64,000 nt of DNA from positions 43,180 through 107,179 of the forward strand of contig JAQTPP010000002.1 of the NCBI GenBank assembly GCA_028712705.1, read 5' to 3'. The notes below the pieces were generated by a model. It worked only from the letters and a program-made list of their open reading frames with translations, was not told the DNA's origin and did not search any database. Shown in pieces: positions 11,930-63,222 of the stretch. The position numbers and the translations under genes were made by a program. Numbering within the stretch: position 1 is the stretch's first letter; each line of letters starts with the position of its first letter. Source of the DNA: Candidatus Daviesbacteria bacterium (GTDB lineage Bacteria; Patescibacteriota; Microgenomatia; Daviesbacterales; UBA10151).

Positions 11930-11931
11930 GT

Positions 11932-13384: not shown

Positions 13385-13503
13385 TCTATTGAATATATCA
13401 AAGATTTCGGTTGTGAAGCAAGAGGGGGAATGGTAAAATTTGTTAGTCTAAGGGTACTTAGCTTCGTCCAGAGGACGACCAGTCTCTGGCTGGCAGCGGC
13501 AGA

Positions 13504-13770
13504 GTGAATTTTAATATGTTTTATGTCTATTTCGCAAAAAGCCTAAGGAACGGTAAAGTTTATGTAGGATTTACATCTAAGAATCCTGTAGATAGAGTTA
13601 ATGAACATAATAGTGGATGTAACCAATGGAGTAAGAATAATAGACCATTTAAACTGATATACTATGAAAGTTTGATTTGTGAAGATGATGCGCGGCAAAG
13701 GGAACGATTTTATAAATCAGGCGTTGGAAAGAAGATTAAGAATTTAATAGTTGAAGGTATGGGTACTTAG
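13504..13770 (+). CDS. Small GIY-YIG nuclease superfamily protein (COG2827-like)
   Basis: 'VYVGFT', 'R..EHN' and a Glu further along: GIY-YIG core. Its 3' end overlaps the first 10 nt of tRNA-Val. A 12-nt copy of the tRNA-Val 5' end lies upstream. Confidence 0.6.
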   Translation: MNFNMFYVYFAKSLRNGKVYVGFTSKNPVDRVNEHNSGCNQWSKNNRPFKLIYYESLICEDDARQRERFYKSGVGKKIKNLIVEGMGT

Positions 13771-13832
13771 CTCAGTGGTAGAGCGCTGCATTCACATTGC
13801 AGATGTCGGGGGTTCAAATCCCTCAGTACCCA
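13761..13832 (+). tRNA. tRNA-Val (anticodon CAC)
   Basis: Cloverleaf folded by hand. Acceptor GGGTACT/AGTACCC, anticodon loop TTCACAT, T-loop TTCAAAT. CCA not encoded. Confidence 0.8.
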
Positions 13833-14126
13833 CAAGTTAGTTCAATCATGTCAATTATACTGTTGCACACCGGGTGTGTGTAAGTCATCTTGACACTTTT
13901 GATCGCAAAAGTGTCCAAAACTCCTGCAAGTGATGTTCGAGCTAAAATCTTGTCTTTGCTCCTCGGGGAGTTTACCCCTCTGGTATTCCTGCACTAAAGT
14001 GCTAGTCAGTACCAGCTTCCCCTGAGTTGCAAATCCTACGATTTTTATACGCTCTCTGCATCAATTGCAGAATGAAATTTTAGTGCATTTGTTCCAAGTC
14101 AAAGATAAAAAAGAACTTTTCAAAAA

Positions 14127-46784: not shown

Positions 46785-48435
46785 TAAATCGATAGATTTT
46801 GCTTGGTTGAATTGATATAATTTTATAGTTTGCTGCCAAGTCTGACTTGGTTGGTATATTTGACGCGCCGCGTTCGTCTAGTGGCCTAGGACGTTGGGTT
46901 TTCATCCCAGAAATCACGGGTTCGACTCCCGTACGCGGTACCAAATCCCGAGTTAGCGGGGCGGCGCAGAGCGCCGCCCATGGGTTTAGAGCTCCACAGC
47001 AAACTATTTTGTCGGTGAGCTTGAGGTTCGAGCCGAAGATTTTTTGTGCAAGTACCTTTTTTGCTTCCATGTCTTCCCCCCTTGCGGTATTAGCTGCGTT
47101 AGCAGCTTCCACTATCCAGTTTTTGAAAGGTTCGAGCCAAACATTTTGCGTTTGTTGAAAGCGGAGGATTTGTTCTTCTAACGTCTTCTTTTTAGATAAC
47201 AGTTCAGCTTTTTTGTTAAGGTAAGAATCTCTCTCAATATCCTGGTCAAGGTATGAATCAAGAAGACGTTGAAGTTTATCATTTAAACTTCTAATCTCCG
47301 CTTGTTTCTCCTCAACAAACGCATGGCAGGATTGGGCTACATTTTTTTCTTCTACAGATAATCTATCCAGCATTTTATCTGCCCAATCCTGACGCAAAGA
47401 AACTGATGCAATATTATCTGAAAGCTGTCGATCAAGTTCCTCCTGCCTAATAAAAGGTTGATTACATTTAACAGTTTTGGACTTTTTCGTACATCTGTAA
47501 TACAAATAGGTGGCATGATGATTTGTTTCCTTATAAAATTTTTCCTTAAATTCAGCCGTAATCATCATGCCGCACTGCCCGCAGCGAAAAAGTCCCAGGT
47601 ATGGTTTTAAAACAAGAGGTTTTTTCCAAGACCTGCTTCGTTTCCTCCATACCTCTTGTACGCTATCCCACAGTTTCTTTGAAATGATCGGCGTATGTTT
47701 TCCTTCGTGGATCTCGCCCCAATATTTAAAATGGCCATAGTAGAAAGGGTTAGTTAAGATCTGTTTAGTTACTCTATCAGCTTTCCATTCCTGTCCTTTT
47801 CTGGTCACTATGCCATTTTTAGCCAAAAAGTCCCGGATATCCATTATCCGGTAGTTACCGGTAGCAAACAGTTCAAAAGCCTTTTTAACAATAGTAGCCC
47901 GCTTTTTATCCAAAACTATAGTTTTGATAAGGAGGTCGTTAAGGTAGCCAACAGGAGGGATACCAGGATATATACCATTTCTGACTTTTTGGCGTAAACC
48001 TCTTTTGGTGTTTTCTGAAAGCGAGTCCACGAAGTATTTGCTTTGCCCAAATGCGATGGTGAGCATAAATTTTCCCTGGGGTGTAGCATCAAACCAGAAT
48101 TGAGGAAACTTAAGATACTTAATTTTACCGGTATCAATAAGATAAATAATTTTGCCGCCATCCACACTATTTCTCGCAAGTCTGTCAGGATGCCAAGCTA
48201 AAATTCCATCTGCTTCCCCGGCTTCAATCCTTTCGATCATACTGTTAAAAATAGGCCTGCCAGGGATTTTAGCTGTCTGCTTTTCAACAAGCTCTTCTAA
48301 GATAATAATACCTTCACGCTTGGCATACTCCCTTAGCTCTGTAATTTGAGCAACAATTGATAAAGCCTGCTTATCTTCTACGTCTGTAGACTTGCGGGCA
48401 TATAAGAACATTTTATTCGTATTTGTAATACTCAT
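46750..48435 (-). CDS. Large serine recombinase (resolvase/invertase catalytic domain, recombinase domain, zinc ribbon, coiled coil)
   Basis: N-terminus 'LYARKSTDVEDKQALSIVAQ' with catalytic Ser, 'DRLARN', a Cys-rich zinc ribbon ('CGQCG...C..C') and a C-terminal coiled coil. The ORF's 3' end reads antisense through IR-L and tRNA-Glu, so the real C-terminus is uncertain. Confidence 0.8.
   Translation of the reverse strand: MSITNTNKMFLYARKSTDVEDKQALSIVAQITELREYAKREGIIILEELVEKQTAKIPGRPIFNSMIERIEAGEADGILAWHPDRLARNSVDGGKIIYLIDTGKIKYLKFPQFWFDATPQGKFMLTIAFGQSKYFVDSLSENTKRGLRQKVRNGIYPGIPPVGYLNDLLIKTIVLDKKRATIVKKAFELFATGNYRIMDIRDFLAKNGIVTRKGQEWKADRVTKQILTNPFYYGHFKYWGEIHEGKHTPIISKKLWDSVQEVWRKRSRSWKKPLVLKPYLGLFRCGQCGMMITAEFKEKFYKETNHHATYLYYRCTKKSKTVKCNQPFIRQEELDRQLSDNIASVSLRQDWADKMLDRLSVEEKNVAQSCHAFVEEKQAEIRSLNDKLQRLLDSYLDQDIERDSYLNKKAELLSKKKTLEEQILRFQQTQNVWLEPFKNWIVEAANAANTARGEDMEAKKVLAQKIFGSNLKLTDKIVCCGALNPWAALCAAPLTRDLVPRTGVEPVISGMKTQRPRPLDERGASNIPTKSDLAANYKIISIQPSKIYRFIKSLEFCGILQ
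46867..46943 (+). tRNA. tRNA-Glu (anticodon TTC), CCA encoded
   Basis: Acceptor GCCGCGT/ACGCGGT, anticodon loop TTTTCAT, T-loop TTCGACT. Its last 20 nt are repeated at 63223-63242. Confidence 0.8.
46939..47019. repeat. 81-bp perfect inverted repeat, left copy (partner 48840-48920)
   Basis: Exact reverse complement verified by hand. Overlaps the last 5 nt (TACCA) of tRNA-Glu. Contains the GC hairpin GGCGGCGC-AGA-GCGCCGCC. Confidence 0.85.
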
Positions 48436-48486
48436 AAAATAACCTTGAACCCTGTCGGGTATAAAAAGAATTTTTGCGATAAATTA

Positions 48487-48640
48487 TTGGCAGTTTGTTC
48501 CATATCTTTTGTGAAAGCGGATTGACTCCGCTTTCACTTAAATGGCCACCTTGGTGATCTCAACCGGTGAAGGTTGTCCAAGATGGCCATTAAAAAACTC
48601 CACCGAATGTTGAGATCGCAAACATATTACAAACTGCCAA
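48487..48640. promoter_or_regulatory. Complex palindromic site upstream of the recombinase gene (candidate recombination site / regulatory region)
   Basis: 12-bp IR TTGGCAGTTTGT/ACAAACTGCCAA. It encloses a 10-bp-stem hairpin (48511-48537) and a ~50-bp imperfect palindrome AATGGCCACCTTGG...CCAAGATGGCCATT centred on AACCGGT (48541-48591). Confidence 0.4.
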
Positions 48641-48839
48641 AAGAAAATACAATATAGCAAAAATTCAATTGCGCATTTAGGCAAAGTTTCCCCACCTTAA
48701 GTGGGGAATTATTGATTTATATTTATATAAAAATAAGCAAAGCTTTTCTTTTTGCTTTGCAAAAAATAAAAAATCGCAAGGGGAATTAAAATTTCAAAAA
48801 AAGGTACTGCAATTAAAAGAATCTTGGGCTTTCTGTTTC

Positions 48840-48920
48840 CTCACCGACAAAATAGTTTGCTGTGGAGCTCTAAACCCATGGGCGGCGCTCTGCGCCGCCC
48901 CGCTAACTCGGGATTTGGTA
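48840..48920. repeat. 81-bp perfect inverted repeat, right copy
   Basis: Reverse complement of 46939-47019. Abuts and overlaps by 3 nt the 184-bp IR copy A. Confidence 0.85.
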
Positions 48921-49101
48921 GCGATCTATGATATCGCTCGGACTTATTTTATCAGGAATTATTAATCGGCGCATCGTATCGTTACGCTTCGGCCGGCTAA
49001 TCGCCGGCCTTGCTAATCACCGACGTATCGGTTCGCTCCGCTCAGGCCGCCTTCGGCGGCCTTCGCTTACCCCGATTCAATCGGGGCTTAAAACTAATCT
49101 T
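48918..49101. repeat. 184-bp perfect inverted repeat, copy A (partner 62667-62850); GC-rich with at least 4 internal hairpins
   Basis: Exact reverse-complement match verified by hand. Internal hairpins include GGCCGGC-TAATC-GCCGGCC, GGCCGCC-TTC-GGCGGCC, CCCGA-TTCAA-TCGGG and GCGAT-CTATGAT-ATCGC. Confidence 0.85.
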
Positions 49102-49215
49102 ATCTTTGGAAATTTTCGCATTTTCTATCCTATCTTTCTGTCTGTTTTATTTTGAGTAGCTTTTGTCTAAAGAGCACTTTTGTTACTCAAACAAAATGTC
49201 TGTTATACTTTATTT

Positions 49216-49980
49216 ATGTCTCAAAATTTTTATGATAAGGTAGCTAAAAAATTTGGTGGTTATGGATATGGTAATGGAAGGAAACCTCAGTATAAAAGCG
49301 AATACCCAGCGGGCGATCCTGAAAGGATTTTTAAAGAAAAGCTATTGGAGTTAAGTTCAAAAGATAAAACGGCACTGGATAGTGGGTGCGCTGACGGCAA
49401 ATTTACTCTTTCTATTGCTCCCTATTTCAAAAAAGTGTACGGGATTGATATTTCAAAGGAAAATTTGAATGTTGCAAATAACCACAGAGCTGATGAGAGA
49501 AGTAAAAATGTTGAATATTCTTTTCAAAACGCAAAACATACCTCATTTGAGGATTCTTTTTTTGATATAGCATATTGCAGGAGAGGACCTACTTTTTACA
49601 AGGAGTATCACAGAATTCTTAAAACCGGTGGATATTATCTTGAAATTGGAATAGGAGAGATGGATACAATAGAGCTAAAAAAGATATTTGGCAGAGGGCA
49701 AGGGTATGGAGAATGGGATAAGTCAAAATTGGATGAAAACTTAAAAGAAATAAAGAATCTTGGTTTTAAGGTTATTTTTGCAGAGAATTTTTATCCCTTT
49801 GAATACTATCCTTCTTCCGCGGAGTTTGATTTATTTCTACATCAGGTACCAATTTTTGAAGATTATGATTCGGAAAAAGACGAGGTATCACTGCAAAAGT
49901 ATGTTAAGAAATTTTCAGCCGATAAAGGTATTATGCTTTCGCGTCACCGGTTGGTAATGGTTGTACAAAAAGTCAGTTAG
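49216..49980 (+). CDS. Class I SAM-dependent methyltransferase (Methyltransf_11/25-like)
   Basis: Motif I 'LDSGCADGKFT'. No DPPY/NPPF motif, so probably not a DNA N6/N4 methyltransferase. Start taken at the internal Met of the 49180 ORF. Confidence 0.65.
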   Translation: MSQNFYDKVAKKFGGYGYGNGRKPQYKSEYPAGDPERIFKEKLLELSSKDKTALDSGCADGKFTLSIAPYFKKVYGIDISKENLNVANNHRADERSKNVEYSFQNAKHTSFEDSFFDIAYCRRGPTFYKEYHRILKTGGYYLEIGIGEMDTIELKKIFGRGQGYGEWDKSKLDENLKEIKNLGFKVIFAENFYPFEYYPSSAEFDLFLHQVPIFEDYDSEKDEVSLQKYVKKFSADKGIMLSRHRLVMVVQKVS

Positions 49981-49994
49981 ACGATTTTCTCGTT

Positions 49995-50750
49995 TTATTT
50001 TTCGTAAATTCTGATTGCTTGCCGATATTTACAAAAGTCACAGTCGCTACCACTATTGGGTAGTTTTTCAGATTTTAAACATTCTATAGCATCGAAAATA
50101 GTTCCTTCAACCCAGCTATCGTCTCCTTCGTATGGAAGAATTTTAATATCAAATTCCAGTTTGGCATCAAAAGCTGCTTTGTCTGTATTGCCATTGCAGT
50201 AAACAAAGTATCCGGTATTTGAAACTTTGAAACAGTTTTTCCTAAAAAGCCACTGGTATATTTCCATCTGCCTTTTATAGCCAATTTGCCACTCGGCATT
50301 GAGGGTAACTTCTTCATCTTTGGCAGTAGCCTTGTAGTCAACTATGATTAGTTCTTTTTTGGGATTAACCCAAAGATCATCAATTCCCCCTGTTACCAAG
50401 ACATTACTGTGATCTATTTTTAAAGTTATTCCACCCCGTAGAGAATCTCTCCACTCATCCAACTTTTCGTGAGCCATAGGGACTGCATCAACTTTGTAAT
50501 GTTTCATCAAAGGATGGGGAGTACCATTTGCACGATGAATATCAAACTCTTTTTTTAACAATTTATCTACAGCAGAATTAAGGGAGAAGGGATACCCAGG
50601 CGGTTGAGCAACTCCTAATTTTCTATCAAGGTAAAAACATCTTGGGCAATTTAAATATAAATCAATTTTTGACCTGCTCAAACGAAATAATTCTTTAGAA
50701 TTCTTATCATATAAATTTCTTTTCCTACTTGGATTGTAATATTTAGACAT
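49995..50750 (-). CDS. Cas4-like/RecB-family PD-(D/E)xK nuclease with 4-Cys cluster
   Basis: N-terminal 'CPRC'; 'GGIDDLWV' (D), 'IIVDYKATAK' (D-x-K), 'QMEIYQ' (QxxxY); C-terminal 'C-x11-C-x2-C'. Start at the Met 4 nt after the upstream gene's stop. Confidence 0.65.
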   Translation of the reverse strand: MSKYYNPSRKRNLYDKNSKELFRLSRSKIDLYLNCPRCFYLDRKLGVAQPPGYPFSLNSAVDKLLKKEFDIHRANGTPHPLMKHYKVDAVPMAHEKLDEWRDSLRGGITLKIDHSNVLVTGGIDDLWVNPKKELIIVDYKATAKDEEVTLNAEWQIGYKRQMEIYQWLFRKNCFKVSNTGYFVYCNGNTDKAAFDAKLEFDIKILPYEGDDSWVEGTIFDAIECLKSEKLPNSGSDCDFCKYRQAIRIYEK

Positions 50751-53583
50751 CTTTGAAGTTGTACTTTTGCTCTCTTTTTTGGAAAGCCTCTCTCCCTCCC
50801 TCAAGAATTTCGCAAACGTGCTGGCGGACACCTTTTCTATAAAGTATAGATTTTTCTTTTGATTCCGATAGTTCAAAAGCATTTTCTAGTGATCCAGATA
50901 CATATTCAAATGTATATTTTCTATTATCTCTACCTTTTTCTTGACCTTCCTGGTTTGCTACTATTATTTCTTCGGCATCAGCTCCAACAACTAGATTAGG
51001 GTTATGTGTTACAAAAATAATCTGTCTTCGCTTTTTCTTTTTCTTGATAAAAGATACCAAATCATCGTATACGGATCGATTATCCAAGTCATCTTCAGGT
51101 TGGTCTAAAAGTATAGGCCATTCTTCATTGCTTAGGTCAATTAAAATTCTTAATAACACAAGACCTTTTTTACCAGGAGACATTTTATCCAATGAATCAT
51201 TTTTATATGAAATTTTGAAATCAAGGTAAAAATAGTCATCCAAAATTTTTGTTACTGCTTCTTTGGTAGATTTATTCTTAACAGTTTTTATTTTTCCATC
51301 TATTACGCTTGTGAAAATAGCAGTTATAAAATCTATATGTTCGTTCGGATTGTATTGATATTCATACTCATCTTTCCACTCAGTACCGTCTATCAATCTT
51401 TTAATATCTACTTTATTTATACAACCATTTATTACTTCATCATTAAATCTTTGCTCATTGAATCCTACTAAAACGTTTAAAGAGATTCCGTCAAATCTCT
51501 TTTCATACTTTTTAAATTCGTCCTTTATTGAATTATAACTACCGAATATTTTTTTATAAACATCAATTAAGAATTCTTTCTCATTTTTATGGCTATTTTT
51601 CTTTGATTCTAGATTCTTTTTTTCAATAGCTATCCTATCTAGTTTACCCTGCTCAATCTTAATTTCTTCATTTTTCTTTTTGAGTTCATCTTGGAGTTTA
51701 ACCTTTGCCATTAGAGGTGTTAGATCTTTTCGGATCTCTTCCAAAAGCTTTTGCTTTTCAGAAACTCTAGTATCTATTAATCTAATTATTTTACCTACAG
51801 ATAATAATAAATTATTACGTACAGTTTCTATCTGATGAAATTCTTTTGTAAATTCATTTTTAATCTCCTCATCTTCTAGATATACTAATTGTTCGTTCTT
51901 TAAATTCTCAAAACTTTTTAATTGTTGATAAATATTTTGACTAAATAAATTTATATGCTTTTTATCTTCCGATAAAAGTGTAACCTTTCTTGTTGCTTCT
52001 TGCTCTTTGTTTAATAATTGTTCGTAATCTTTAATTTGTACAGTAGTTAAGCCAGACTTGATCTTGATTTCGTTAGCTTCTTTCTGCAGTTGCTCTAGAT
52101 ATTTCCTAATACCACTCTCCTCTCCAAGTTGCTTTAAAGTTTGTTCAATTTCTAAAATATCATCCCTGAACTGATATAGATTGTTTATGCTAATAGGAAT
52201 ATTTTTTGAAAGGCTTTTAATTTGCATAAGATCACTTTCGTGTTTTTCTTTCACCTCTTTATCTTGAAGTAGTACATCCATTACGAATCTATTTAAAGTT
52301 TCTCTACTTTTTATATTCCTTTCAGAAAGTTTATTTAAATAATTTTGTGGAATATATAAAATCTTTCTTTCATTTTCTTTAACTTGTGCACCTGTATTTT
52401 TGAGAAAAGTACTTGCTCCATCTGTCCAAACGACTTCGAAATTAAAGTTTGGATTTTCGTCGAATGTATAAGGTAAAACTAATTGTCCATCTGTAAATCT
52501 ACCACCAGCTTCAAGTGGATCAATGGTTTTAGCAATATAATAAAGTAATAAAGATTTACCTGTAGATTTACCGCCAATGATAGCTGTTAAGTTATTGTTA
52601 ATTTCTATTGGGTCTGATTGAAAATTTTCATTTCCGGTACTATCAATAAATCGTATTTTATCTATGAGAAAATATGTTTTTTTTGATTCTGGGCGTTCGT
52701 AACCAAAAGCTACTCTATCCCAAGGCTCAAATAAAATTTGTTTTAATCCTTCAAAAGTTTTATCTGCTTTTATCCAAGTTATATCTTTTTCCGTATTGCC
52801 TTGAGTATTAGTGAACTGTTTCCCTAAAAAATTATCAAGATCGGAGAATGAATGACAGTCTGATGTAGTGACAACAGCTTTAGGCTTTGACTGTATACTT
52901 TTATTTTCATAGCGATCAGTTTGTAAGTAATAATCTTTATTGTTAGCATTTCCGAAGAAAAAATCACAAAAGCTGTCAAATGAGTCAGCTAACTCCTTTT
53001 TAACATTAGAGCTAGGAACAGCCCTTAAGCTCCCCATACCTGAAGCCACCCCTACAATGAGATAAGGACAGTCATTTCCAAAACTATCCTCTAAAGTTTT
53101 TTTTAAATCTTCAATCGAAATACTTACCCGATCATATCCGCCACACCCTGTAATATCTGCATCAACACAATAACATTTTGATTCATCAGGTTGTTTGTTT
53201 TGAAGGGGTAATCTAGAAAGAAAGCTTTTTATTCTTGCAATCTCGCATTGAGGATCAAAAATCAGATGGCATTGTAATTGTTCTGTAGCTTGATTAAGAC
53301 TAATATCTAGTCTCAATTCAATATTTGGAAAGAAAACTTTCCCCTCAAAATCTGAATTACCTTGTATCTTTGAGATAAGTTTTTCATACCCATCTATGGA
53401 AAAGTAATCAGTGATACCAAATACTTCTACATCAGAATTCTTAATTCTTTCCAGAAAAAGATTCCAAACGTCATCAATAATACCGCCTCTTATTTTATAT
53501 TGGTCTTCTCTTTTAGTCTCAGGAGTATGAATCTGTAAATCCCACTTCCTCCATACAGAACCCTTTGGGTATAAATTGTTCAT
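50743..53583 (-). CDS. PHP-domain-fused SMC/Rad50-like ABC ATPase (Ppl/TrlF-like architecture)
   Basis: N-terminus 'KWDLQIHTPETK' His-rich PHP-like. Walker A 'GGKSTGKS'. About 350 aa of coiled-coil-rich insert. C-terminal 'ILLDQPEDDLD' Walker B/D-loop and 'FVTHNPN' typical of OLD/SMC-like ABC ATPases. Confidence 0.7.
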   Translation of the reverse strand: MNNLYPKGSVWRKWDLQIHTPETKREDQYKIRGGIIDDVWNLFLERIKNSDVEVFGITDYFSIDGYEKLISKIQGNSDFEGKVFFPNIELRLDISLNQATEQLQCHLIFDPQCEIARIKSFLSRLPLQNKQPDESKCYCVDADITGCGGYDRVSISIEDLKKTLEDSFGNDCPYLIVGVASGMGSLRAVPSSNVKKELADSFDSFCDFFFGNANNKDYYLQTDRYENKSIQSKPKAVVTTSDCHSFSDLDNFLGKQFTNTQGNTEKDITWIKADKTFEGLKQILFEPWDRVAFGYERPESKKTYFLIDKIRFIDSTGNENFQSDPIEINNNLTAIIGGKSTGKSLLLYYIAKTIDPLEAGGRFTDGQLVLPYTFDENPNFNFEVVWTDGASTFLKNTGAQVKENERKILYIPQNYLNKLSERNIKSRETLNRFVMDVLLQDKEVKEKHESDLMQIKSLSKNIPISINNLYQFRDDILEIEQTLKQLGEESGIRKYLEQLQKEANEIKIKSGLTTVQIKDYEQLLNKEQEATRKVTLLSEDKKHINLFSQNIYQQLKSFENLKNEQLVYLEDEEIKNEFTKEFHQIETVRNNLLLSVGKIIRLIDTRVSEKQKLLEEIRKDLTPLMAKVKLQDELKKKNEEIKIEQGKLDRIAIEKKNLESKKNSHKNEKEFLIDVYKKIFGSYNSIKDEFKKYEKRFDGISLNVLVGFNEQRFNDEVINGCINKVDIKRLIDGTEWKDEYEYQYNPNEHIDFITAIFTSVIDGKIKTVKNKSTKEAVTKILDDYFYLDFKISYKNDSLDKMSPGKKGLVLLRILIDLSNEEWPILLDQPEDDLDNRSVYDDLVSFIKKKKKRRQIIFVTHNPNLVVGADAEEIIVANQEGQEKGRDNRKYTFEYVSGSLENAFELSESKEKSILYRKGVRQHVCEILEGGREAFQKREQKYNFKDV

Positions 53584-53584
53584 A

Positions 53585-53668
53585 TTATTCTTTATTATTT
53601 TCTACAATCGCAATTTCTTCCTGCGTTAGGCCGTAGAGTTTATAGACAAAATCGTTAAATTCAAACAT
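53585..53668 (-). pseudogene. 27-codon ORF (MFEFNDFVYKLYGLTQEEIAIVENNKE) resembling a DNA methyltransferase C-terminal tail; possible gene remnant or coupled micro-ORF
   Basis: 'LYGLTxEEI' is a recurring C-terminal tail of N6-adenine methyltransferases/type IIG enzymes (recollection). Its stop sits 1 nt before the ATPase start codon. Confidence 0.25.
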
Positions 53669-53831
53669 ATTAAATAATCACTTGCGCATAAATTTTTCTT
53701 CAAATATGTCATCAAAAACGGTTTCATTACTTTTACGGTAAATGGCATACCAATAATTTTTATCCATTTATCATGAGTTAGTAAGTTTCCGTATAATAGA
53801 CATTAAAATTTTGCTTATTAGTTTCCATATA

Positions 53832-56800
53832 TTATGAATGATACTGTCTCGTTCCTCTACAGTAAGGGAAACGGGAACAACCATAAAATCTACCATACCT
53901 TCCGGTTCTCAATATCATACCCGAACCGCATTTTGGACAATTTTTATCGTTAGAAATTAGAGCATCATTAACATCTTCGGCAGGCTTTTCAACTAATGTA
54001 TAACCCTTACAATGCATACAAAATCGTCCATATCCGGTTGTCAAATCAGGATCCCTAAAGTCTTTATATTCTCTAACTTCCTTACATTTTGGACACTCCT
54101 TCATTGAACCATTTTGTAAATTTTCTACCGTTTCGTGTATATGGCTTATGACATTATTTTTTCCCACCCCATTTTTAACTAAACTAATTATTCTTTCGTT
54201 AAGAGTTGCAATAGGATTGTTGCCAATGTTGAATTTATTAATTCTTAAAAATCTGTAACCGTAACTCTCTAATACTTTTTCTCTATAAATATCTGATTCG
54301 GAATAATAATCTTGGTAGTTGTATTCATTTATTTCATCGGTATCCTTAAAGTGCTCTTTAAAACCGTCATATTCCATGACGATTTTGTGTTCTTTATGTG
54401 TTTCGTCCTTATATACAAGTAAGAAATCAACCTTATATTTTGGATGATTGTAGGTTCTATCGAGTTGTTTCAAATACTTTCCAAGCTCAAACTGTGGAAT
54501 AAACTCAATGCTATCCTTGTGTTTTGTCCAAAACTCCGTTTGATAAAACCAATTCATGACTTCAGGCTCCATCTTAGACTTCTTATCAGCTTCGGTAACA
54601 CTGTGCTCCTTCTTAGATTCGTTAAGAACAAAATAATAGTGTCTTAAGGCTTCACCTATTGAACCGGTATAATTTTCAATAGGTTTACTTAACACAAAAT
54701 GCATACATTCTTTGGCACGGCTTAAACCAACGTTCAATCTTTGAGCTTTTATTCTTCCTTCTTCTTCAACATCAACATCATTTAAATCTTTAATAAACAC
54801 ACCCCAAAGATGATCATCTTCTTCCATCGCAACCATGGAATAAAATACGAGATCTCTTTCTTCGCCTTGGCAGGTGTCAAAAGTCATTATTTTTAATTTA
54901 AAGGTATCGTAAAAGTAATCTTTTTCCGGTAATTGACTAATTTTTTCAACGAGTAATTTCTGTTGATTGGTGTGGGGCGTTATAATACCAACGCTTTGAT
55001 TAGACCCAGACTCTTTGAGTTTTTTCAACTCCGAAATAATATATTTGACTTCCAATTCATTAGAATTTTGCAACAATTCCGTTTTCCCATCATGTTTGAT
55101 AAACGAAAATTTCAGTACTTCATCAATCGACTTCCCTCGAATTTTCATTACCTGTAGGCTGTCCTGATAAAAGTATTTATTTGAATAGGAAATAATCTCT
55201 TTGTAACCTCTAAAATATTTTAAAAGTTGTATATCGTAGTTACTAATAAAATCAAAAAACTCAAGAATTGAGGTTTTAATATTAAACTTTTTGAGTTTCT
55301 CTAATTTCACACCTTCATTTGAAATATTTTTAACAAAGCTGTCTTCAAGTTGACTTAAATATTTCCTATTTTCTTCTGTGCGAGCTTGCGCAGTCTTAAC
55401 GTTACTAAATTGTTTTCTATCTCCCAAAACTAACACCTTTTTAGCTCTCAGAAGTGCAGGAAAGGCCTGAGCTATGCTTACCTGTGAAGCCTCATCTATA
55501 ATTACTAAATCAAATATTTCAGGTTCAAGAGGAATATACTCAGCATAATCTCTAATTCCAGCCAAAATGCAGGGAAAAGCCTCTTTAAGCTTTAGAAATT
55601 CATTTTGTGGAAACTTCATTTTGCTTTGAATTATTTTTTTCAAAGCGGTTGCGGTAGCTTTGTAATTAGTCCAAAAATCAATCAGCCTATTGTCCATGAC
55701 ATGAGTCATTTGTACAGTAAGCAAGCTTTCAATGTCTTTCTTTTGACTATCGTAGTTGAGATCAGGAATGTCTTGAAAATCCTTTTCAATCTTTTGGTTC
55801 AAACTCAAATATCTGATTAATTTATCGAAATCCAAATCAGATATTTTTGTGAAACTATTATCAGTAAGAGTTTTAAATGACGAAAGATTAACTTTTAGTT
55901 TTTTAGCCGTAAGTGGATACTTATCTATATTTGAGCCAAGATATTTTATATCATCATTTAAAGCTATTAAGTCATTTAAAGATGATAGAGTGCTTTCATT
56001 TTTTATGGCTTGATGAAAAAAGTGTAAGTAGTCGAGTTTACTAATAAATTTGTCATCAAGCTTGCCAAATATTTCATCCGCATAATTATAGATGTTCGTT
56101 GCTTCGTCAAGTTTCTTTAGGTTTTGTTGTGGTTCGATTGAAGATGAATATTTAAAATTTTTTCTAAATTCAGTATTTAGCCGCCCTATCTGATCTTTTT
56201 TGAATAGATAGCCGAATAGCCAATTTTTCTCCTCTTTATATTTTTGTATGGACGAGTTTAGGATTTTTAACCTAGAAGAATCGAAGCTTTCGAACTCTAG
56301 AATTGAATTTACTTTATCTCCATATACTTCACGCAGTTTAGCGACAGATGAAGAAAGAGAGCTTAAAAACTGTAAATATTTTTGAAAATCAGATGTATCT
56401 TTGAAGTCATCAAGAGAAAAATCCAATAACTCAAATATTTTTAGTGCCTTTTCATTTTCATCAGTATTAATTACTAAATTAGCTTTAAGTGTTAAAAATA
56501 TCTTCCGGAATTCTTCAAGATCTATCGCAGACTCCTGCTGTTTAACCACTTCTTCTAAATCAATGGGGAAACCATTGTTTGTATGGTAGCTTTCAAGATC
56601 AAAGTATTCGTGAATCTCTTTTATATCGATATCCTTATAAGTCAATATTTCTGCTTCTATGTCCTCCTTTAATGACTTCTGAGATTTATCAATATTCTGT
56701 TCTAGATCCTTATAGTTTTTCTTTACTGCAAGAAAATTATTTGTAATAGCTTTAATTGATATTGGACTTAGTATCTTTGCATAAGCATTACCTATTTTCC

Positions 56801-58430
56801 CCAATCTTAAAACAGGATTTTGAAAATTATCGTCTGTCCTAACTTTGTTCATCGTTTCCGTTATCTTATCCTCTACAACATCAAGAGCCTCTTTCTTATC
56901 AGACAGAACTAAAACAGATTGGTTTTTAAGTATTGCGTTGAAAACAACTGCGGTTATTGTATGGCTTTTACCTGTTCCAGGAGGACCTTGCACAATAATA
57001 TATTTACAATCATCTTGCTTTATAGCTGATAGTATTTGTAGTTGTTCTTCGTTTAATGGAATCGGGCTTTGAAATACAAGTTTATCCTGTACTTCTTGAT
57101 CATTCCAATCTTCTTGAATTTCTATATTGAAACTTTTTGGGTCTTTCTGAATAAAGTCATCAATTAACTTGTTAAAAGCACCAGCTAAAATATTATCCTC
57201 GGAAGAAAGAAGCTTTAAAATTTCTTCGTAATCGTTTACCAACGCTTCATCAGATTTATCGAATAAGGTTATATAGCATGAATTAGACACCCTAACAAGA
57301 AAACTCTTCGCAACCTGCGGGTCCGTTTTATCTATATCAATATTGTTGTCTAATTCAAAAAAGTTAGTGATCTCATTCAGGATTTCGCTTGTTAATTCCC
57401 TGAAATCATCTTGATGTTGTGCTAGATAGATAATTCTTTCAGCAATGGTTTTTAGATTTCCCTTTTTATCTTTTTCTTGATTATATTGCTGTGAAATGTA
57501 TTCAAGTGCTTTCTTGTTTATGTAGACTTGAGAATCAAATTCTATATTCAATAGATCATTTTGTTTTTCTACAGTAAACGGAATATAGAAAATTGGATAC
57601 TTTGCCTTTTCAAAAGTGATATCGCAAAAATATAGATAAAATTCCTGTTTGTCTAAAATGGTACGGTTCCGCTCCATCTCATATACTTCTGCAAATAAAT
57701 CTCCGACACGGAAACTTTCAAAAAACGACAAAATATTAGTTTTGGCATTATCAATGTCAAAAACATCCTTTAATTGCTTAGGAATGTCTACCTTTTCCTT
57801 TGCCAACAGGAGCTTAATAACTTCTGAAATTTTATTTTCAAGCAAGGAGGTGAGAACAGAGGTAAGTTCCTCTTCCATTAAATAGATACTGTCCTCATCT
57901 CCTAAATTTAAGTTCTCGAGTGGTTTTTCTAAATAATTAATAAATGGTAGTACTAATTTTGATTGAATGACTTTTGAAGTTGCTTCGAGGGCTGTACTTA
58001 ACGCTTGGTCATATTCTTTTTTATACAGAGTAGACGATTTCTCAATCTCTCCACCAATTTGTTCAAGCATCTGAGAAATTTGCTTATTCGTTATTTTTGT
58101 AAGAGATAGCTCGATAAGATCAAGAAGATTTTGGGGTATATTTGTACGGTAGACACCTTTTTGGATCGCATTTAAAGCACTTTTGTCAAAAGAATGATTA
58201 ATTGCTTTCCAAACAAGATTAGAAAAAGCCGGATATTTATTAAGGTTTAAACCAATTAGTAGATTATTACCACTTCGTAATTGAACACTCCGTTTTGGGT
58301 TTCTTCTTTTATGGAAATCTGTTTCCAGAAAATCCATAAAGTATTTAGCAACTTCGCGAATAAAAGTAAGGCTCTTGGAGAGACTAAAAACTTTTTCGTC
58401 TTTATCAGTCTCATTATCAATTAATGCCAT
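53832..58430 (-). CDS. Giant SF1 (Upf1/DNA2-like) helicase fused to a DUF559/Vsr-like PD-(D/E)xK endonuclease and two topoisomerase-type zinc ribbons (Hhe-like architecture)
   Basis: Walker A 'GPPGTGKSHT'; motif II 'IIDEASQ'; 'VLVLGDRKQ'; C-terminal 'FLLVYKDETHKEHKIVMEYDG...REKVLESYGYRFLRI' REase-like; 'CPKCGSGMILRTGRYGRFYGCSRFPYCRGT' zf-C4_Topoisom. N-terminal ~470 aa are DUF4011-like. Confidence 0.8.
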   Translation of the reverse strand: MALIDNETDKDEKVFSLSKSLTFIREVAKYFMDFLETDFHKRRNPKRSVQLRSGNNLLIGLNLNKYPAFSNLVWKAINHSFDKSALNAIQKGVYRTNIPQNLLDLIELSLTKITNKQISQMLEQIGGEIEKSSTLYKKEYDQALSTALEATSKVIQSKLVLPFINYLEKPLENLNLGDEDSIYLMEEELTSVLTSLLENKISEVIKLLLAKEKVDIPKQLKDVFDIDNAKTNILSFFESFRVGDLFAEVYEMERNRTILDKQEFYLYFCDITFEKAKYPIFYIPFTVEKQNDLLNIEFDSQVYINKKALEYISQQYNQEKDKKGNLKTIAERIIYLAQHQDDFRELTSEILNEITNFFELDNNIDIDKTDPQVAKSFLVRVSNSCYITLFDKSDEALVNDYEEILKLLSSEDNILAGAFNKLIDDFIQKDPKSFNIEIQEDWNDQEVQDKLVFQSPIPLNEEQLQILSAIKQDDCKYIIVQGPPGTGKSHTITAVVFNAILKNQSVLVLSDKKEALDVVEDKITETMNKVRTDDNFQNPVLRLGKIGNAYAKILSPISIKAITNNFLAVKKNYKDLEQNIDKSQKSLKEDIEAEILTYKDIDIKEIHEYFDLESYHTNNGFPIDLEEVVKQQESAIDLEEFRKIFLTLKANLVINTDENEKALKIFELLDFSLDDFKDTSDFQKYLQFLSSLSSSVAKLREVYGDKVNSILEFESFDSSRLKILNSSIQKYKEEKNWLFGYLFKKDQIGRLNTEFRKNFKYSSSIEPQQNLKKLDEATNIYNYADEIFGKLDDKFISKLDYLHFFHQAIKNESTLSSLNDLIALNDDIKYLGSNIDKYPLTAKKLKVNLSSFKTLTDNSFTKISDLDFDKLIRYLSLNQKIEKDFQDIPDLNYDSQKKDIESLLTVQMTHVMDNRLIDFWTNYKATATALKKIIQSKMKFPQNEFLKLKEAFPCILAGIRDYAEYIPLEPEIFDLVIIDEASQVSIAQAFPALLRAKKVLVLGDRKQFSNVKTAQARTEENRKYLSQLEDSFVKNISNEGVKLEKLKKFNIKTSILEFFDFISNYDIQLLKYFRGYKEIISYSNKYFYQDSLQVMKIRGKSIDEVLKFSFIKHDGKTELLQNSNELEVKYIISELKKLKESGSNQSVGIITPHTNQQKLLVEKISQLPEKDYFYDTFKLKIMTFDTCQGEERDLVFYSMVAMEEDDHLWGVFIKDLNDVDVEEEGRIKAQRLNVGLSRAKECMHFVLSKPIENYTGSIGEALRHYYFVLNESKKEHSVTEADKKSKMEPEVMNWFYQTEFWTKHKDSIEFIPQFELGKYLKQLDRTYNHPKYKVDFLLVYKDETHKEHKIVMEYDGFKEHFKDTDEINEYNYQDYYSESDIYREKVLESYGYRFLRINKFNIGNNPIATLNERIISLVKNGVGKNNVISHIHETVENLQNGSMKECPKCKEVREYKDFRDPDLTTGYGRFCMHCKGYTLVEKPAEDVNDALISNDKNCPKCGSGMILRTGRYGRFYGCSRFPYCRGTRQYHS

Positions 58431-58491
58431 AGTTTAGATCAATTCTAGCAAAATTCTTTGATTTAAGATAGGAAGAAATTAAACTTGAGAT

Positions 58492-59004
58492 TTACAGACC
58501 CCAGATGCCTCTTTTATTTTTCTTGGCCTCATCTTGAGCTTTAAGTAATAACTCCCGGTAAATAAATGGTTTCTTTTTTTGGTAAACTACAACTTGTGCC
58601 ATGCCAAGTCTGGCAAGTTTCATAGAGACATTTTTGCCATCAACAATTACATAGGCAAGTATCCTGCCAAATTTGTCTCCTTTGTAATTGTCATATTCCA
58701 GTTTTATTTCTTTCCCTTCAACCAATTTTCTGTTTGCTTCAGTGGCCTCTTTTTCAAAAGGCTCATTAGTTTCAGGGGAAGTTATACCAACATACCTGAC
58801 AATTGCCCCGCTGTGCAAAACAATGGTATCTCCGTCAACAATCCGTTCAACTTTTGCTTCCTTTGGAAAATAACTGATATTCTGGGTCTGGTATTTACCT
58901 GTATTTTCAATTAGGTCTTTAATCTTTTTCTCATAAGGAGTATTTTTAAGATGAGGCAATATATCTTCCAGTAAATTTTCTGAAACGGTAATTAGTTTAG
59001 CCAT
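58492..59004 (-). CDS. Staphylococcal nuclease (SNase/thermonuclease)-like protein
   Basis: 'RIVDGDTIVL...VRYVGITSPE' and 'GKEIKLEYD...DKFGRILAYV' SNase OB-fold catalytic motifs. The ORF-track N-terminal extension overlapping the upstream gene was rejected. Confidence 0.65.
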   Translation of the reverse strand: MAKLITVSENLLEDILPHLKNTPYEKKIKDLIENTGKYQTQNISYFPKEAKVERIVDGDTIVLHSGAIVRYVGITSPETNEPFEKEATEANRKLVEGKEIKLEYDNYKGDKFGRILAYVIVDGKNVSMKLARLGMAQVVVYQKKKPFIYRELLLKAQDEAKKNKRGIWGL

Positions 59005-59044
59005 ATTTATGGATCCCGTATCAAGTACGGGATGACAAGGTAGA

Positions 59045-60265
59045 TTAGTTATGCTCAATAAAAGCTTTGTAGCCAACAAGCTTTTTGTTATCCCCTGAAC
59101 TGGAATAGATATTTTTAACTCCAAAGGTGAGATATAACTCATCTTTGGCATAAGTGATGGTAGTGCCATTGGGGTCTGATGAATTGAAGGTTTGCTTGAA
59201 ACCGGAATTTGTAAGCTCTCTGGTATAGTAATCAATAAAGTCTTGAGGAATAGTTTCCAGTTGTGATGATTCAAGGTAGACACCTTCCTGCTCAATTCTT
59301 CTTTTACCTGAAGTAAAAAGTAAGGTTTTGCTTTGGGTTAGTTCCCAAGTAAGGCCGGAGAATAAAGCAGGCAAGATAGAAGGATTAGAGGGGGTAGAAG
59401 GAGAAGAGGGATTAGGGGCAACAGGTAGCGTGGGAGTGGGGGTTGGTTTAGTTTCAAAAGAAACAACTTCGGAGACTTCTATTAAATTAGGGGTTGGGGT
59501 CATGTTGCCTTTAACTTCTACCTTCATGTTTTCAAAATTAGCTAAATTAACATTTTGTGATTTAGGTATTAGAGTCCACATGGTTTTATTTTTATCATTT
59601 GCCTGCAGGTAATATCCTTTGGTAGACTTTTGTATTGTCCCCTGGGCAGTAATTGACCGGTGCAGGATTGGAGAAAAATTGGGGAATAGTTTACCTACAG
59701 CATAGTTCAGGCCTGATTTAAATCCTACTCCAAAACCTCCAATTCCCACCATTATTACAATCAATGCCAGGACAGGAATGCGCAGAGTAATCATTTGTCT
59801 TTTGAGCAGTTTAGCTAAAAATTTCTTGAGATATGTTACAGGATTGGTCAGAAAGAAGCCAAAAAGAGGAGGGTCTTCTTTTTCAGAGGGTTTGGTATTT
59901 TGGTTAATTTCTATGATAGGAGGCAGAATTGAGGAAGGATTAGAGGGAACAGAAGGATTATCCGCCTTCGCCGAGGCTTCGGTGGACGAGGTAGGATGTT
60001 CAGATGTAATGAAGTGACCATGTTCGTCTCTTGGTTTGTTTTGGGCTGCTTCAGAATAATGTTCGTGTTTTAAAGCATCTGGTCCTTCGGCTTCACTCAG
60101 GATCTTCGAGGTATTCGGAGTGTTCAGGGGAGGAGTTTGTGGCGTAGGCGGGATAGGATTAGGTTGGGGTTGTGTCTGGTAAGGACTGTTTGGGTCTACA
60201 GGATTAGTATGGGGGTTAAAGTTAGAGCCAAAAGGTTGAGGCGGATCTTTGGGCAGATTATCCAT
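59045..60265 (-). CDS. Proline-rich membrane protein (low-complexity P/T/N-rich segments, one TM), unknown function
   Basis: Composition and one hydrophobic helix 'ITLRIPVLALIVIMVGIGGFGVGF'. Confidence 0.45.
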   Translation of the reverse strand: MDNLPKDPPQPFGSNFNPHTNPVDPNSPYQTQPQPNPIPPTPQTPPLNTPNTSKILSEAEGPDALKHEHYSEAAQNKPRDEHGHFITSEHPTSSTEASAKADNPSVPSNPSSILPPIIEINQNTKPSEKEDPPLFGFFLTNPVTYLKKFLAKLLKRQMITLRIPVLALIVIMVGIGGFGVGFKSGLNYAVGKLFPNFSPILHRSITAQGTIQKSTKGYYLQANDKNKTMWTLIPKSQNVNLANFENMKVEVKGNMTPTPNLIEVSEVVSFETKPTPTPTLPVAPNPSSPSTPSNPSILPALFSGLTWELTQSKTLLFTSGKRRIEQEGVYLESSQLETIPQDFIDYYTRELTNSGFKQTFNSSDPNGTTITYAKDELYLTFGVKNIYSSSGDNKKLVGYKAFIEHN

Positions 60266-60311
60266 ATCTTCAGTATACCCTCAAGATAATTTCAGGTGCA
60301 AGCTAAAGATT

Positions 60312-60884
60312 CTATTTAACTGCAATAGATATTAATTTTTCGTGATACTCCGGCTTTTTTGAAGAATCAACTCCATATAAAACTACTTCAATAATATCAA
60401 ATACCCAATTGACTTTTTTTAGCCTGGTACTTAATTCCAAGAGAGAGGCTTTAAATGCTTCTTGAGCTTTTGGATCTCCTACCCAAGCCACAGTAACATG
60501 AGGATGAAATGGTAAGTTATTATCAGCAGCGCAGTAAATAGATAGACTTTTTGAAATTAACTTATTAAATTCCTGTAATTGCGGCGGATATTGAACATCT
60601 GAAAATAGTATTCTTGGCTTATCTTCTCCAAAATACCCAAAACCGCTAACCTTTAATTTAGTTCCTTTCAGTATTTCTAAATACTTTTTGACATCTTCTG
60701 CTATTCTTGACAAAGCGGATTGAGATTGTTTATCTAAATAACAAACGGTGATATGAGGAGTTTTAGGGTGGGTTGTTTTAAATAAAGGACTGATTTGAGA
60801 AATATCGGTCTGTAAGTCTTCAAAATCTTGTTGATACTTCTGAGGCAGGGGGATTCCAATAAAATATGAACTATAATCTTTCAT
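60312..60884 (-). CDS. 2H phosphoesterase, LigT/ThpR-like (2'-5' RNA ligase family)
   Basis: Two HxT/S motifs: 'HITVCYL' and 'HPHVTVAW'. Confidence 0.75.
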   Translation of the reverse strand: MKDYSSYFIGIPLPQKYQQDFEDLQTDISQISPLFKTTHPKTPHITVCYLDKQSQSALSRIAEDVKKYLEILKGTKLKVSGFGYFGEDKPRILFSDVQYPPQLQEFNKLISKSLSIYCAADNNLPFHPHVTVAWVGDPKAQEAFKASLLELSTRLKKVNWVFDIIEVVLYGVDSSKKPEYHEKLISIAVK

Positions 60885-60941
60885 GAAAGCAGTATATCAA
60901 ATTTTGACTTTTTGAGCTTATAGGTTTACAATCCGATTGTT

Positions 60942-62666: not shown

Positions 62667-62850
62667 AAGATTAGTTTTAAGCCCCGATTGAATCGGGGTA
62701 AGCGAAGGCCGCCGAAGGCGGCCTGAGCGGAGCGAACCGATACGTCGGTGATTAGCAAGGCCGGCGATTAGCCGGCCGAAGCGTAACGATACGATGCGCC
62801 GATTAATAATTCCTGATAAAATAAGTCCGAGCGATATCATAGATCGCTAC
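62667..62850. repeat. 184-bp perfect inverted repeat, copy B
   Basis: Exact reverse complement of 48918-49101. Confidence 0.85.
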
Positions 62851-62866
62851 ACTTCGGCTACGCTCA

Positions 62867-63190: not shown

Positions 63191-63222
63191 GTTTACCCTG
63201 AACGAGCGAAGCGAGCTGAAGG

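Follow-up and report, generated by a model that had tools for sequence, protein, structure and literature searches.

Minimal GIY-YIG nuclease genes nested in partially duplicated tRNA genes of Candidatus Daviesbacteria: probable homing-type selfish cassettes

Two small genes for predicted GIY-YIG nucleases, ORF1 and ORF2, lie beside duplicated pieces of transfer RNA (tRNA) genes in a 64,000-nucleotide (nt) stretch of the genome of a Candidatus Daviesbacteria bacterium (contig JAQTPP010000002.1 of assembly GCA_028712705.1, forward-strand positions 43,180 to 107,179; "the window" in what follows). The first of them, at tRNA-Val, is part of an insertion whose ends fall exactly on a 12-nt repeat of the tRNA 5' end, as is evident from a related allele that lacks it. 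Both loci are probably homing-type selfish cassettes of some 300-400 base pairs (bp) that encode a predicted GIY-YIG nuclease and nothing else, reside within a tRNA gene and keep one intact copy of that tRNA. Among the 339 six-frame open reading frames (ORFs) of at least 50 amino acids (aa) in the window, these two are the only ones of the GIY-YIG type.

The sequence that marks the left side of the first cassette, GGGTACTTAGCT, occurs in the window in two exact copies, at 13452-13463 and at 13761-13772, the second being nt 1-12 of the intact tRNA-Val(CAC); it is absent from all 100 of 100 dinucleotide-preserving shuffles. A scan of metagenome contigs with a tRNA-Val pattern turned up one contig (L081; related contigs and loci are designated here by L numbers) that is syntenic with window 9911-13463 at ~77% nucleotide identity. 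By blastn, L081 1636-3468 corresponds to window 11641-13463 and L081 3457-3538 to window 13761-13842, so that the alignment, once stopped, restarts at 13761 and runs for 82 nt at 100% identity. The order in L081 is lepB, promoter and then tRNA-Val directly, with no nuclease gene. Locus 1 is an insertion with exact boundaries at the 12-nt repeat.

A second occupied allele is provided by L090, which carries its cassette at the same parB-lepB-tRNA-Val site, with an ORF 79% identical in aa and a cassette 75% identical in nt to those of the window. Presence and absence with a precise boundary are thus seen at the one site that is covered, filled in the window and L090 and empty in L081. LepB of the filled L090 is 61% identical in aa to that of the window, as against 75% for the empty L081. 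The more distant relative is therefore filled and the closer one empty, which makes the cassette patchy in its distribution and better conserved than its flank. This one sequence comparison (79% for the cassette vs 61% for LepB) is suggestive of a history of the element that differs from the history of the host.

The interior of the filled locus is more elaborate than a repeat and a gene (Table 1). The left 12-nt copy is read as the native tRNA-Val 5' end, displaced; behind it come a double hairpin and then a degenerate copy of the D-arm, CAGCGGCAGAGTG, which agrees with the tRNA D-arm of the filled locus L090 at 12 of 13 positions and with that of the window's own tRNA-Val at 10 of 13. Nine nt further on ORF1 begins, and the intact tRNA-Val follows it. 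Homologues place the ORF1 start at ATG 13516 (84 aa) rather than at GTG 13504 (88 aa). Its stop codon, TAG at 13768-13770, is borrowed from the tRNA, where the same three positions are nt 8-10 (U8-A9-G10), and ORF and tRNA overlap by 10 nt. A preliminary description of this DNA, made from its letters alone, had reported the exact 12-nt copy of the tRNA-Val 5' end upstream of an 88-aa ORF that overlaps the tRNA by 10 nt, and had suggested that tRNA-Val loci with and without the insert be compared. The repeat and the overlap stand, and the comparison finds an empty allele whose boundaries coincide with the repeat; the ORF is to be shortened to 84 aa and the upstream copy lengthened to a mosaic of nt 1-25. 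That description did not extend to the double hairpin, to the full mosaic pseudo-tRNA or to the U8-A9-G10 stop codon. The promoter-like site of tRNA-Val ends 12 nt 5' of the left tRNA fragment; the empty allele L081 has a matching TTGTGA-17-TAGAAT 5' of its tRNA-Val, and extended -10 boxes also precede the left fragments in other loci.

At locus 2 it is the 3' end of the tRNA that is duplicated. ORF2, for which 263 homologues were found and whose identical protein is annotated in a Candidatus Daviesbacteria metagenome-assembled genome (MAG), is followed by an exact 20-nt copy of the end of tRNA-Glu, GACTCCCGTACGCGGTACCA, as the preliminary description had stated; the window has no other copy of it even at 3 mismatches, and 100 shuffles have none. 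This copy is read as the native tRNA-Glu 3' end, displaced. In relatives the cassette runs from CAC-TTCGGCAAGCTCAGTGCAAGC through the ORF to GCTTGCCCTGA...GAAGGG and a tRNA copy of 11-17 nt that begins in the T-loop and reaches the 3' end; lengths of 11-20 nt are found at this place in homologous cassettes. The tRNA-Glu 3' end is directly followed by the cassette in L086 and L087, with no island, and in L083 and L084 the same cassette stands behind the 3' exon of an intron-containing tRNA. The end motifs of ORF2-type cassettes can pair in part, and in the folding predictions they enclose the ORF by a long stem; a closing stem is present in both the minimum-free-energy and the centroid structures of the window copy (z -2.2).

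The intact tRNA-Glu and ORF2 are separated in the window by an island that carries genes for a serine recombinase (next to tRNA-Glu), a methyltransferase, a PD-(D/E)XK nuclease, an SMC-like ATPase, an SF1 helicase, an SNase and a LigT protein. It could be argued from this arrangement that the tRNA repeats are integrase attachment (att) duplications, i.e., island junctions, and that the GIY-YIG genes are passive cargo: tRNA 3' ends are the classical integration sites, and locus 2 does sit at the far end of an island with a large serine recombinase by tRNA-Glu. That account is very unlikely. Locus 1 is 309 bp long, has no recombinase and duplicates a tRNA 5' end. ORF2 homologues have tRNA-Glu immediately 5' of the ORF and the same 3' fragment behind it without any island, for which reason an island att site was dropped as the explanation of locus 2 and the 20-nt repeat is assigned to the cassette. 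In the window, and likewise in L088, L089 and L096, unrelated DNA reaches the last few tRNA nt and ends just before the cassette's left motif, and such junctions imply that other elements repeatedly integrate into the tRNA-Glu end, upstream of a cassette that is already there. We also know of no serine recombinase that generates 20-nt direct repeats. The sequences thus indicate that locus 2 is the same kind of element as locus 1 and that the island is a later arrival, which separated tRNA-Glu from the cassette. An earlier suggestion that the nuclease genes take part in generating the island junctions fares badly, as the island has a large serine recombinase of its own and L086 and L087 show the repeat without an island.

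Table 1. Features of the two tRNA-nested nuclease loci and of the adjoining island (window coordinates)
Feature	Position	Strand	Basis or remarks
Promoter-like site of tRNA-Val (TTGTGA, 17-nt spacer, TG-extended TAAAAT)	13411..13439	+	Consensus scan
Left copy of tRNA-Val nt 1-12	13452..13463	+	Exact 12-mer; synteny with L081 stops exactly at 13463
309-bp insertion relative to the empty allele	13464..13772 (or 13452-13760, owing to the 12-nt repeat)	+	blastn vs L081
Double hairpin, 30 nt: TCGTCC-AGA-GGACGA + CCAGTC-TCT-GGCTGG	13464..13493	+	
Degenerate D-arm copy CAGCGGCAGAGTG, tRNA nt 13-25	13494..13506	+	10/13 vs own tRNA-Val
ORF1, predicted 84-aa minimal Slx1-like / UPF0213 GIY-YIG nuclease gene	13516..13770	+	Pfam PF01541
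tRNA-Val(CAC), intact	13761..13833	+	ARAGORN; Rfam 73.8 bits; 100% identical to L081 tRNA
tRNA-Glu(UUC), intact, original cassette partner	46867..46943	+	ARAGORN, Rfam
Island of ~15.9 kb, outside the cassette	46944..62849	.	Pfam; low GC, reversed skew; right boundary inferred to within a few nt
Left-end motif CAC TTCGGCTACGCTCAGTGCAGGC	62850..62874	+	Same motif in L083, L084, L086, L087
ORF2, predicted 103-aa GIY-YIG nuclease gene	62879..63190	+	Pfam; start ATG 62879 by homologues (107 aa from GTG 62867)
Right-end motif and hairpin GTTTACCCTGA...GCTGAAGG	63191..63222	+	Co-folding across 8 loci
Copy of tRNA-Glu nt 58-77 (T-loop to CCA)	63223..63242	+	Exact 20-mer GACTCCCGTACGCGGTACCA = 46924-46943

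The tRNA genes that house the cassette in L083 (1161-1363) and L084 (1210-1402) contain a group I intron (Rfam RF00028, 78 and 69 bits) in addition to the ORF2-type cassette at the 3' end, so that two different selfish elements are found within one tRNA gene. A transfer-messenger RNA (tmRNA) gene 5' of these two ORFs was also considered and was ruled out, since Rfam gives a group I intron within a tRNA. In the window itself, Rfam scans of the whole stretch, and of locus 2 at a permissive threshold, returned only tRNAs and two sub-threshold matches.

How general the arrangement is can be judged from the relatives. A genome scan that used one genome per species gave more than 529 of them, of which the best 80 loci were taken for context counts; Patescibacteria MAGs supplied nearly all of these, and Omnitrophota, Ignavibacteria, Calditrichaceae and other groups a few. 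A tRNA lies within 100 nt of the ORF in 49 of the 80 loci, on the same strand in 48 of the 49, where about 3 would be expected from the tRNA density in the outer flanks of the same 80 loci. The enrichment next to same-strand tRNAs is ~16-fold (binomial P ~1e-48), and in three further loci without a tRNA the ORF adjoins a tmRNA gene. Two layouts recur, as at the two window loci. In type A (35 loci) a copy of the 5' part of the tRNA lies 30-80 nt 5' of the ORF and the intact tRNA immediately 3' of it, while type B (14 loci) begins with the intact tRNA, continues with the ORF and ends in a copy of the tRNA 3' part. An exact copy of at least 10 nt of the adjoining tRNA is present on the ORF's far side in 28 of the 34 type A and 12 of the 14 type B loci tested, vs ~7% for mismatched loci and <1% for shuffled flanks; a duplicate of the displaced part of the host gene is thus found in 40 of the 48 tRNA-linked loci. 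The duplications are 8-58 nt long, and one of their boundaries is anchored at the tRNA end.

At least 15 tRNA identities are occupied, in addition to tmRNA. Of 51 tRNA-linked ORFs, 24 have their best match in an ORF located at the same tRNA identity (4.7 expected; maximum 14 in 5000 permutations), and this partial clustering implies that lineages mostly keep to one tRNA and switch occasionally. The closest ORF1 homologues end in M/L-G/D-x, encoded by NTG-GNN-NNT-TAG, which is the 5' acceptor strand of the tRNA with U8-A9-G10 as the stop; this tRNA-borrowed stop was confirmed in the window and in L001, L002, L006, L016, L019, L060 and L090-L094. Premature stops mark decayed ORFs in L005, L021, L035 and L044, as would be expected of selfish endonuclease genes. 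Viral contigs yielded only 1 relative, so phages are not an obvious vehicle. Most ORF1 homologues sit on contigs of ~1 kb, and five short Logan contigs with close ORF1 homologues (L090-L094) stop 19-35 nt past the stop codon, within the tRNA.

These counts bear directly on whether the matches are accidental, with conserved tRNA sequence matched over a short length beside small ORFs that have nothing to do with it. tRNA 11-mers do recur by chance in the window, and yet both repeats are missing from every shuffle, the boundary of the empty allele falls at the repeat, and the family-wide probability is that given above. Coincidence has next to no chance of being the explanation, and together with the att duplications it is effectively excluded. 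The preliminary description had put forward a selfish, homing-endonuclease-style insertion that targets tRNA genes, and had proposed that relatives be surveyed for tRNA adjacency and flanking duplications; the survey bears out both features, and the empty allele, the enrichment and the far-side copies measured against controls all favor the proposal.

The far-side tRNA copies are mosaic pseudo-copies in which tRNA stretches alternate with GC-rich hairpins, and in the clade of the window ORF the hairpin unit is a 30-nt double hairpin of the form TCnnCC-ARA-GGnnGA followed by YCnnCC-TYT-GGnnGR. This unit is present at a like junction in at least 22 related loci; it is inserted into the pseudo-tRNA after T8, T12 or T17 or, in L072, in the anticodon loop, and 2-4 double hairpins are found in a single pseudo-tRNA in L006, L011, L017 and L091-L093. 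When 399 kb of related loci were scanned for it (repeat listings included), 76 of the 93 hits lay within 150 nt of a nuclease ORF or inside one. An alignment of 23 copies shows compensatory changes in 9 of 12 base pairs, which was reached by 0 of 500 shuffles; the aligned hairpins were chosen by their pairing, and this inflates the percentage that is paired. Other subfamilies (L017, L004) have whole pseudo-tRNA arms replaced by hairpins of the type CCCGA...TCGGG. Candidate roles for the hairpins include breaking the homology between the direct repeats, such that the cassette is not deleted, and destroying the nuclease site; they may also keep the pseudo-tRNA transcript from disturbing the real tRNA, or serve as a recognition structure for the nuclease.

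The intact and partial tRNA copies in these loci are not always the same. Element-side and native tRNA copies differ in L007, L013, L044, L080 and L092; CCA is encoded only in the cassette-side copy in L013, L044 and L080; and in L007 (3270-3330) the acceptor/3' strand is chimeric with another tRNA-Pro. Such differences suggest co-conversion of tRNA sequence with the cassette, and one isoacceptor gene might possibly be overwritten by another in this way.

Several loci show cassettes or their remains in series. In L072 (2200-3350) a cassette lies 5' of two of three successive tRNA-Ser genes, and one pseudo-copy is the one with the double hairpin in its anticodon loop. L017 (1340-1980) has mosaic pseudo-tRNAs without an ORF, L004 (2520-3370) has two different GIY-YIG families within one tRNA-Val array, and in L008 (3240-3355) a second ORF copy begins right behind a partial tRNA. 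The window contains four GC-rich hairpins at 62680-62800, CCCCGATTGAATCGGGG, GGCCGCCGAAGGCGGCC, CCGATACGTCGG and GGCCGGCGATTAGCCGGCC, which are of the CCCGA...TCGGG type seen in the pseudo-tRNAs of L017 and L004; the cluster may be a relic of another, decayed cassette.

The hairpins also invite a transposon-like explanation, by which the GIY-YIG protein would act as a nickase or transposase on hairpin or inverted-repeat ends, perhaps by way of single-stranded hairpin intermediates, and the tRNA repeats would be target-site duplications. The double hairpin is always at one cassette end, is sometimes multiplied, and by standing at several points of the pseudo-tRNA behaves like an independently inserting unit. 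ORF2-type cassettes have the partly complementary end motifs described above, and the Slx1 relatives of the protein (PDB match 6SEH) are structure-specific nucleases. A transposon of this kind is nonetheless rather unlikely: the repeats have no fixed length, one of their boundaries is at the tRNA end, and ORF1-type cassettes have no terminal inverted repeats and carry the hairpin module at one end only. To our knowledge, no GIY-YIG transposase has been reported.

The proteins themselves belong to the GIY-YIG superfamily. Against PF01541 (cut-off 22.6 bits), ORF1 scores 57.5 bits (E 1.7e-15) and ORF2 55.4 bits (E 7.5e-15); the two are 28% identical to each other. A protein search with ORF1 returned 75 homologues, 39 of which are exactly 84 aa long. 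Y5, Y16, G18, R27, H31 and E63 are invariant in 50 homologues and are of the catalytic type, with putative roles assigned by analogy to I-TevI. No invariant or nearly invariant Asn follows E63, as in the minimal stand-alone domains of the family, which lack the C-terminal Asn of the UvrC/homing endonuclease lineage (PMC1564403). Compared with PDB, the family profile has its best matches in the UPF0213 proteins EF2693 (1YWL) and BH0048 (1ZG2), followed by SLX1. The AlphaFold2 model of ORF1 (predicted local distance difference test score, pLDDT, 95) has the element order beta-beta-alpha-alpha-beta-alpha-alpha and a GIY-YIG fold; Foldseek ranks BH0048 and Slx1 (4XM5, 6SEH) at the top, at probability 1.0 but with weak E values of 0.007-0.05, and I-TevI and UvrC lower. 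The NCBIfam model for group I intron endonucleases, TIGR01453, was not reached (16 bits vs a cut-off of 56), no defence family of PADLOC was matched, and PHROGs gave only a weak "homing endonuclease" match (E 8e-5). By sequence and by model, then, ORF1 fits the prokaryotic Slx1-like / UPF0213 (COG2827) branch of GIY-YIG proteins, and the guess that it is COG2827-like, made from its letters alone, agrees with the UPF0213 proteins being the best matches in sequence and structure.

Membership in this branch can be read in favor of a host function. Dunin-Horkawicz et al. regarded the Slx1-like prokaryotic branch as ancient and mainly vertically inherited, read its stand-alone members as repair factors, and reported a fusion of the Slx1-like domain to the tRNA Gm18 methyltransferase TrmH (PMC1564403). 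The small GIY-YIG proteins could accordingly be host proteins that serve the repair or upkeep of heavily transcribed tRNA genes, or RNA metabolism; the ORFs would sit in tRNA operons for co-expression, and the tRNA fragments would be debris of tRNA duplication. The ORFs are indeed on the tRNA strand and apparently share its promoter, and their catalytic residues are conserved. But a host gene would not readily explain a precise empty allele in the closer relative and a patchy presence, the use of at least 15 tRNA identities plus tmRNA, or partial duplications that are systematic and exactly on the far side of the ORF. Serial or tandem arrays (L004, L008, L017, L072), decayed copies and the lack of a PADLOC defence family speak in the same direction, and a host role is distinctly unlikely.

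We therefore return to the homing-type selfish cassette. Its insertion, its architecture, its association with tRNA genes and the conservation of its nuclease are observed here; the rest of the mechanism we infer. The cassette would bring with it, or copy, the displaced part of the tRNA, such that an intact tRNA is present on the ORF side and a hairpin-broken pseudo-copy on the far side. The nuclease would break an unoccupied copy of the same tRNA gene, and repair would copy the cassette from the occupied allele, the tRNA sequence on either side of the break being the sole homology. Homology of this restricted kind would lead to duplications with one limit at tRNA nt 1 or at the tRNA 3' end, to the retention of one intact tRNA, and to spread between genomes with unrelated flanks. 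At locus 1, where no strong promoter-like site belongs to the cassette itself, transcription from the tRNA promoter may yield a single RNA that joins the ORF1 message to tRNA-Val, with the message as the 5' leader of the tRNA. Processing by RNase P at tRNA +1 would then cut the ORF1 message off from its stop codon and may in this way hold nuclease levels low. At locus 2, later integration of the serine-recombinase island into the tRNA-Glu end would have moved the cassette 16 kb from its tRNA. A route through RNA and cDNA was considered, since the duplications end at mature tRNA ends and some element-side copies have CCA; it was dropped, as there is no reverse transcriptase and the same boundaries follow from homology that is limited to the tRNA.

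A number of points weigh against a homing-type cassette or against parts of its proposed mechanism. The homology arms on the short side are only 8-24 nt long. Only one empty/filled pair was found. The protein sequences of even the closest cassette copies are at least 21% apart, which gives no hint of a burst in recent times. The intact tRNA-Val of the filled allele is 100% identical to that of the empty allele; if the target lay wholly within the tRNA, the filled allele would not be obviously immune. The pseudo-copy of the occupied allele is broken by hairpins, yet its intact tRNA copy retains the empty-allele sequence, and protection would need a target that reaches past the tRNA, or another mechanism. 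ORF1, at 84 aa, is wholly catalytic domain without a separate DNA-binding module, whereas the characterised GIY-YIG homing enzymes (I-TevI, the Seg proteins) have one. Support for the double hairpin comes from comparison of sequences; the window's own copy folds no better than shuffles (z -0.7). A second promoter-like match on the + strand (9/12 in the consensus scan) lies within ORF1 at 13570-13598 and gives tRNA-Val a possible source of transcription other than read-through. Lastly, neither a tRNA nor a tmRNA is found near about 1/4 to 1/3 of the 80 loci, a whole clade among them, and part of the protein family must thus have another context. In that clade (L024, L031, L070, L073 and neighbours) many ORFs end in ...LSLTG, and the 3-kb flanks contain no tRNA or tmRNA.

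A bolder version of the same idea is offered tentatively, as one we hold to be possible but doubtful. The cassettes would form a structure-guided homing class, made up of Slx1-like minimal GIY-YIG nucleases of candidate-phyla bacteria that recognise hairpin-prone tRNA DNA or their own double hairpin in place of a long sequence, with the covarying hairpin as a co-mobile module and RNase P as a "throttle". One lineage could then colonise many tRNA and tmRNA genes across phyla, with tRNA as a portable homology, and the double hairpin could shield the pseudo-tRNA from re-cleavage or from recombination with the intact copy.

Some observations in the neighbourhood of the two loci stand apart from these questions. 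The ORF of the island's serine recombinase (46753-48435, minus strand) spans the whole of tRNA-Glu on the opposite strand, its last ~65 codons overlapping it; either the recombinase really ends earlier or integration completed its gene. Window 61990-62420, at the island's right end, is non-coding, helix-rich and of 47% GC (37% for the window), with several long complementary segments and a sub-threshold match to the abiF RNA (21.6 bits vs a threshold of 37). The island may have a structured RNA here that is not annotated. Directly 3' of tRNA-Val, window 14000-20600 is low in GC (28-35%), with reversed GC skew and minus-strand genes, the first of which (14267-15649, minus strand) is presumably a type I restriction specificity subunit, judging by eye. 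Synteny with L081 is lost ~50 nt past tRNA-Val, and 14000-20600 may represent another island, distinct from the first, that lies 3' of that gene. Elsewhere in the window, at 31353-31499, tRNA-Gly(CCC) and tRNA-Thr(CGU) adjoin without a spacer (31426/31427), and a 304-aa ORF call on the minus strand (30576-31490) overlaps both.

Were the homing-type cassette to prove correct, many stand-alone Slx1-like/UPF0213 proteins, now annotated only as "GIY-YIG nuclease family protein", would be selfish rather than repair proteins, at least in Patescibacteria and some other phyla. tRNA genes would join the niches of homing-type elements, with tolerance by the host achieved through a portable partial gene copy and not through splicing. 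There would be practical consequences as well, in that the cassettes create pseudo-tRNA fragments, mimic island att sites (as at locus 2) and can replace parts of tRNAs by co-conversion; assemblies may be interrupted systematically at tRNA genes by the cassettes or by a mixture of empty and filled alleles. The biochemical questions raised are how an 84-aa catalytic domain finds a tRNA gene and what protects the occupied allele, and the enzymes might serve as very small programmable or structure-specific nucleases.

As to novelty, no description of tRNA-nested GIY-YIG cassettes in bacteria was found in the full-text literature searched, in which coverage of subscription journals is thin, and novelty is claimed provisionally. 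Features we believe to be undescribed are the bacterial tRNA/tmRNA niche, a Slx1-like nuclease reduced to its catalytic domain, the borrowed U8-A9-G10 stop codon and the covarying hairpins of the pseudo-tRNAs. GIY-YIG nucleases as selfish genes are familiar from the free-standing SegB of phage T4 and the intron-encoded I-TevI, to which the cassettes are alike in this respect. SegB, in the T4 tRNA gene cluster, promotes inheritance of the T4 tRNA region, and enzymes of the SegB/I-TevI type are ~200-250 aa long, have a separate DNA-binding domain and are encoded between genes or in introns. They belong to the UvrC/homing endonuclease branch of the family (PMC1564403), whereas the nucleases described here are placed in the Slx1 branch and lie inside a partially duplicated tRNA. 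With the Slx1-like/UPF0213/COG2827 proteins (E. coli YhbQ, BH0048 of 1ZG2, EF2693 of 1YWL) they share the form of a minimal stand-alone GIY-YIG domain without a conserved C-terminal Asn. UPF0213 members have been viewed as vertically inherited repair proteins of unknown role (PMC1564403), and a tRNA-nested, mobile arrangement of them was not found in the literature searched.

Integrase islands in tRNA and tmRNA genes offer a second likeness, since there too the tRNA is the landing site and is restored, and the displaced fragment becomes a direct repeat; unlike them, the cassettes contain no recombinase, measure 0.3 kb as against several kb, and duplicate 5' ends as often as 3' ends. The double hairpins also have a counterpart by description. 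Paquin and Lang reportedly found double-hairpin elements in the mitochondrial DNA of Allomyces and other fungi, short units in which two GC-rich hairpins stand side by side; these turn up at new sites, among them sites beside mobile endonuclease ORFs. The hairpins of the present cassettes differ from these in being almost confined to pseudo-tRNAs by a nuclease gene.

The closest precedent for the cassettes as a whole is provided by the mobile endonuclease ORFs (mORFs) of fungal mitochondria. These carry a replacement for the end of the gene they invade and leave the native end downstream, unexpressed, as in atp6 of Allomyces macrogynus and in atp6, atp9, cox2 and nad3 of Glomus; in Allomyces the endonuclease was shown to drive mobility, and mORFs of the LAGLIDADG or GIY-YIG type spread horizontally (PMC3630166). 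A free-standing endonuclease ORF within a gene, a replacement for the displaced gene end and the native end left behind as a duplicate are common to mORFs and to the cassettes described here. In contrast to mORFs, the cassettes are on a bacterial chromosome, target a tRNA, tmRNA or intron-containing tRNA gene, of which either end can be replaced, and combine an 84-103-aa Slx1-like catalytic domain with duplications of 8-58 nt and a pseudo-copy that is broken by hairpins.

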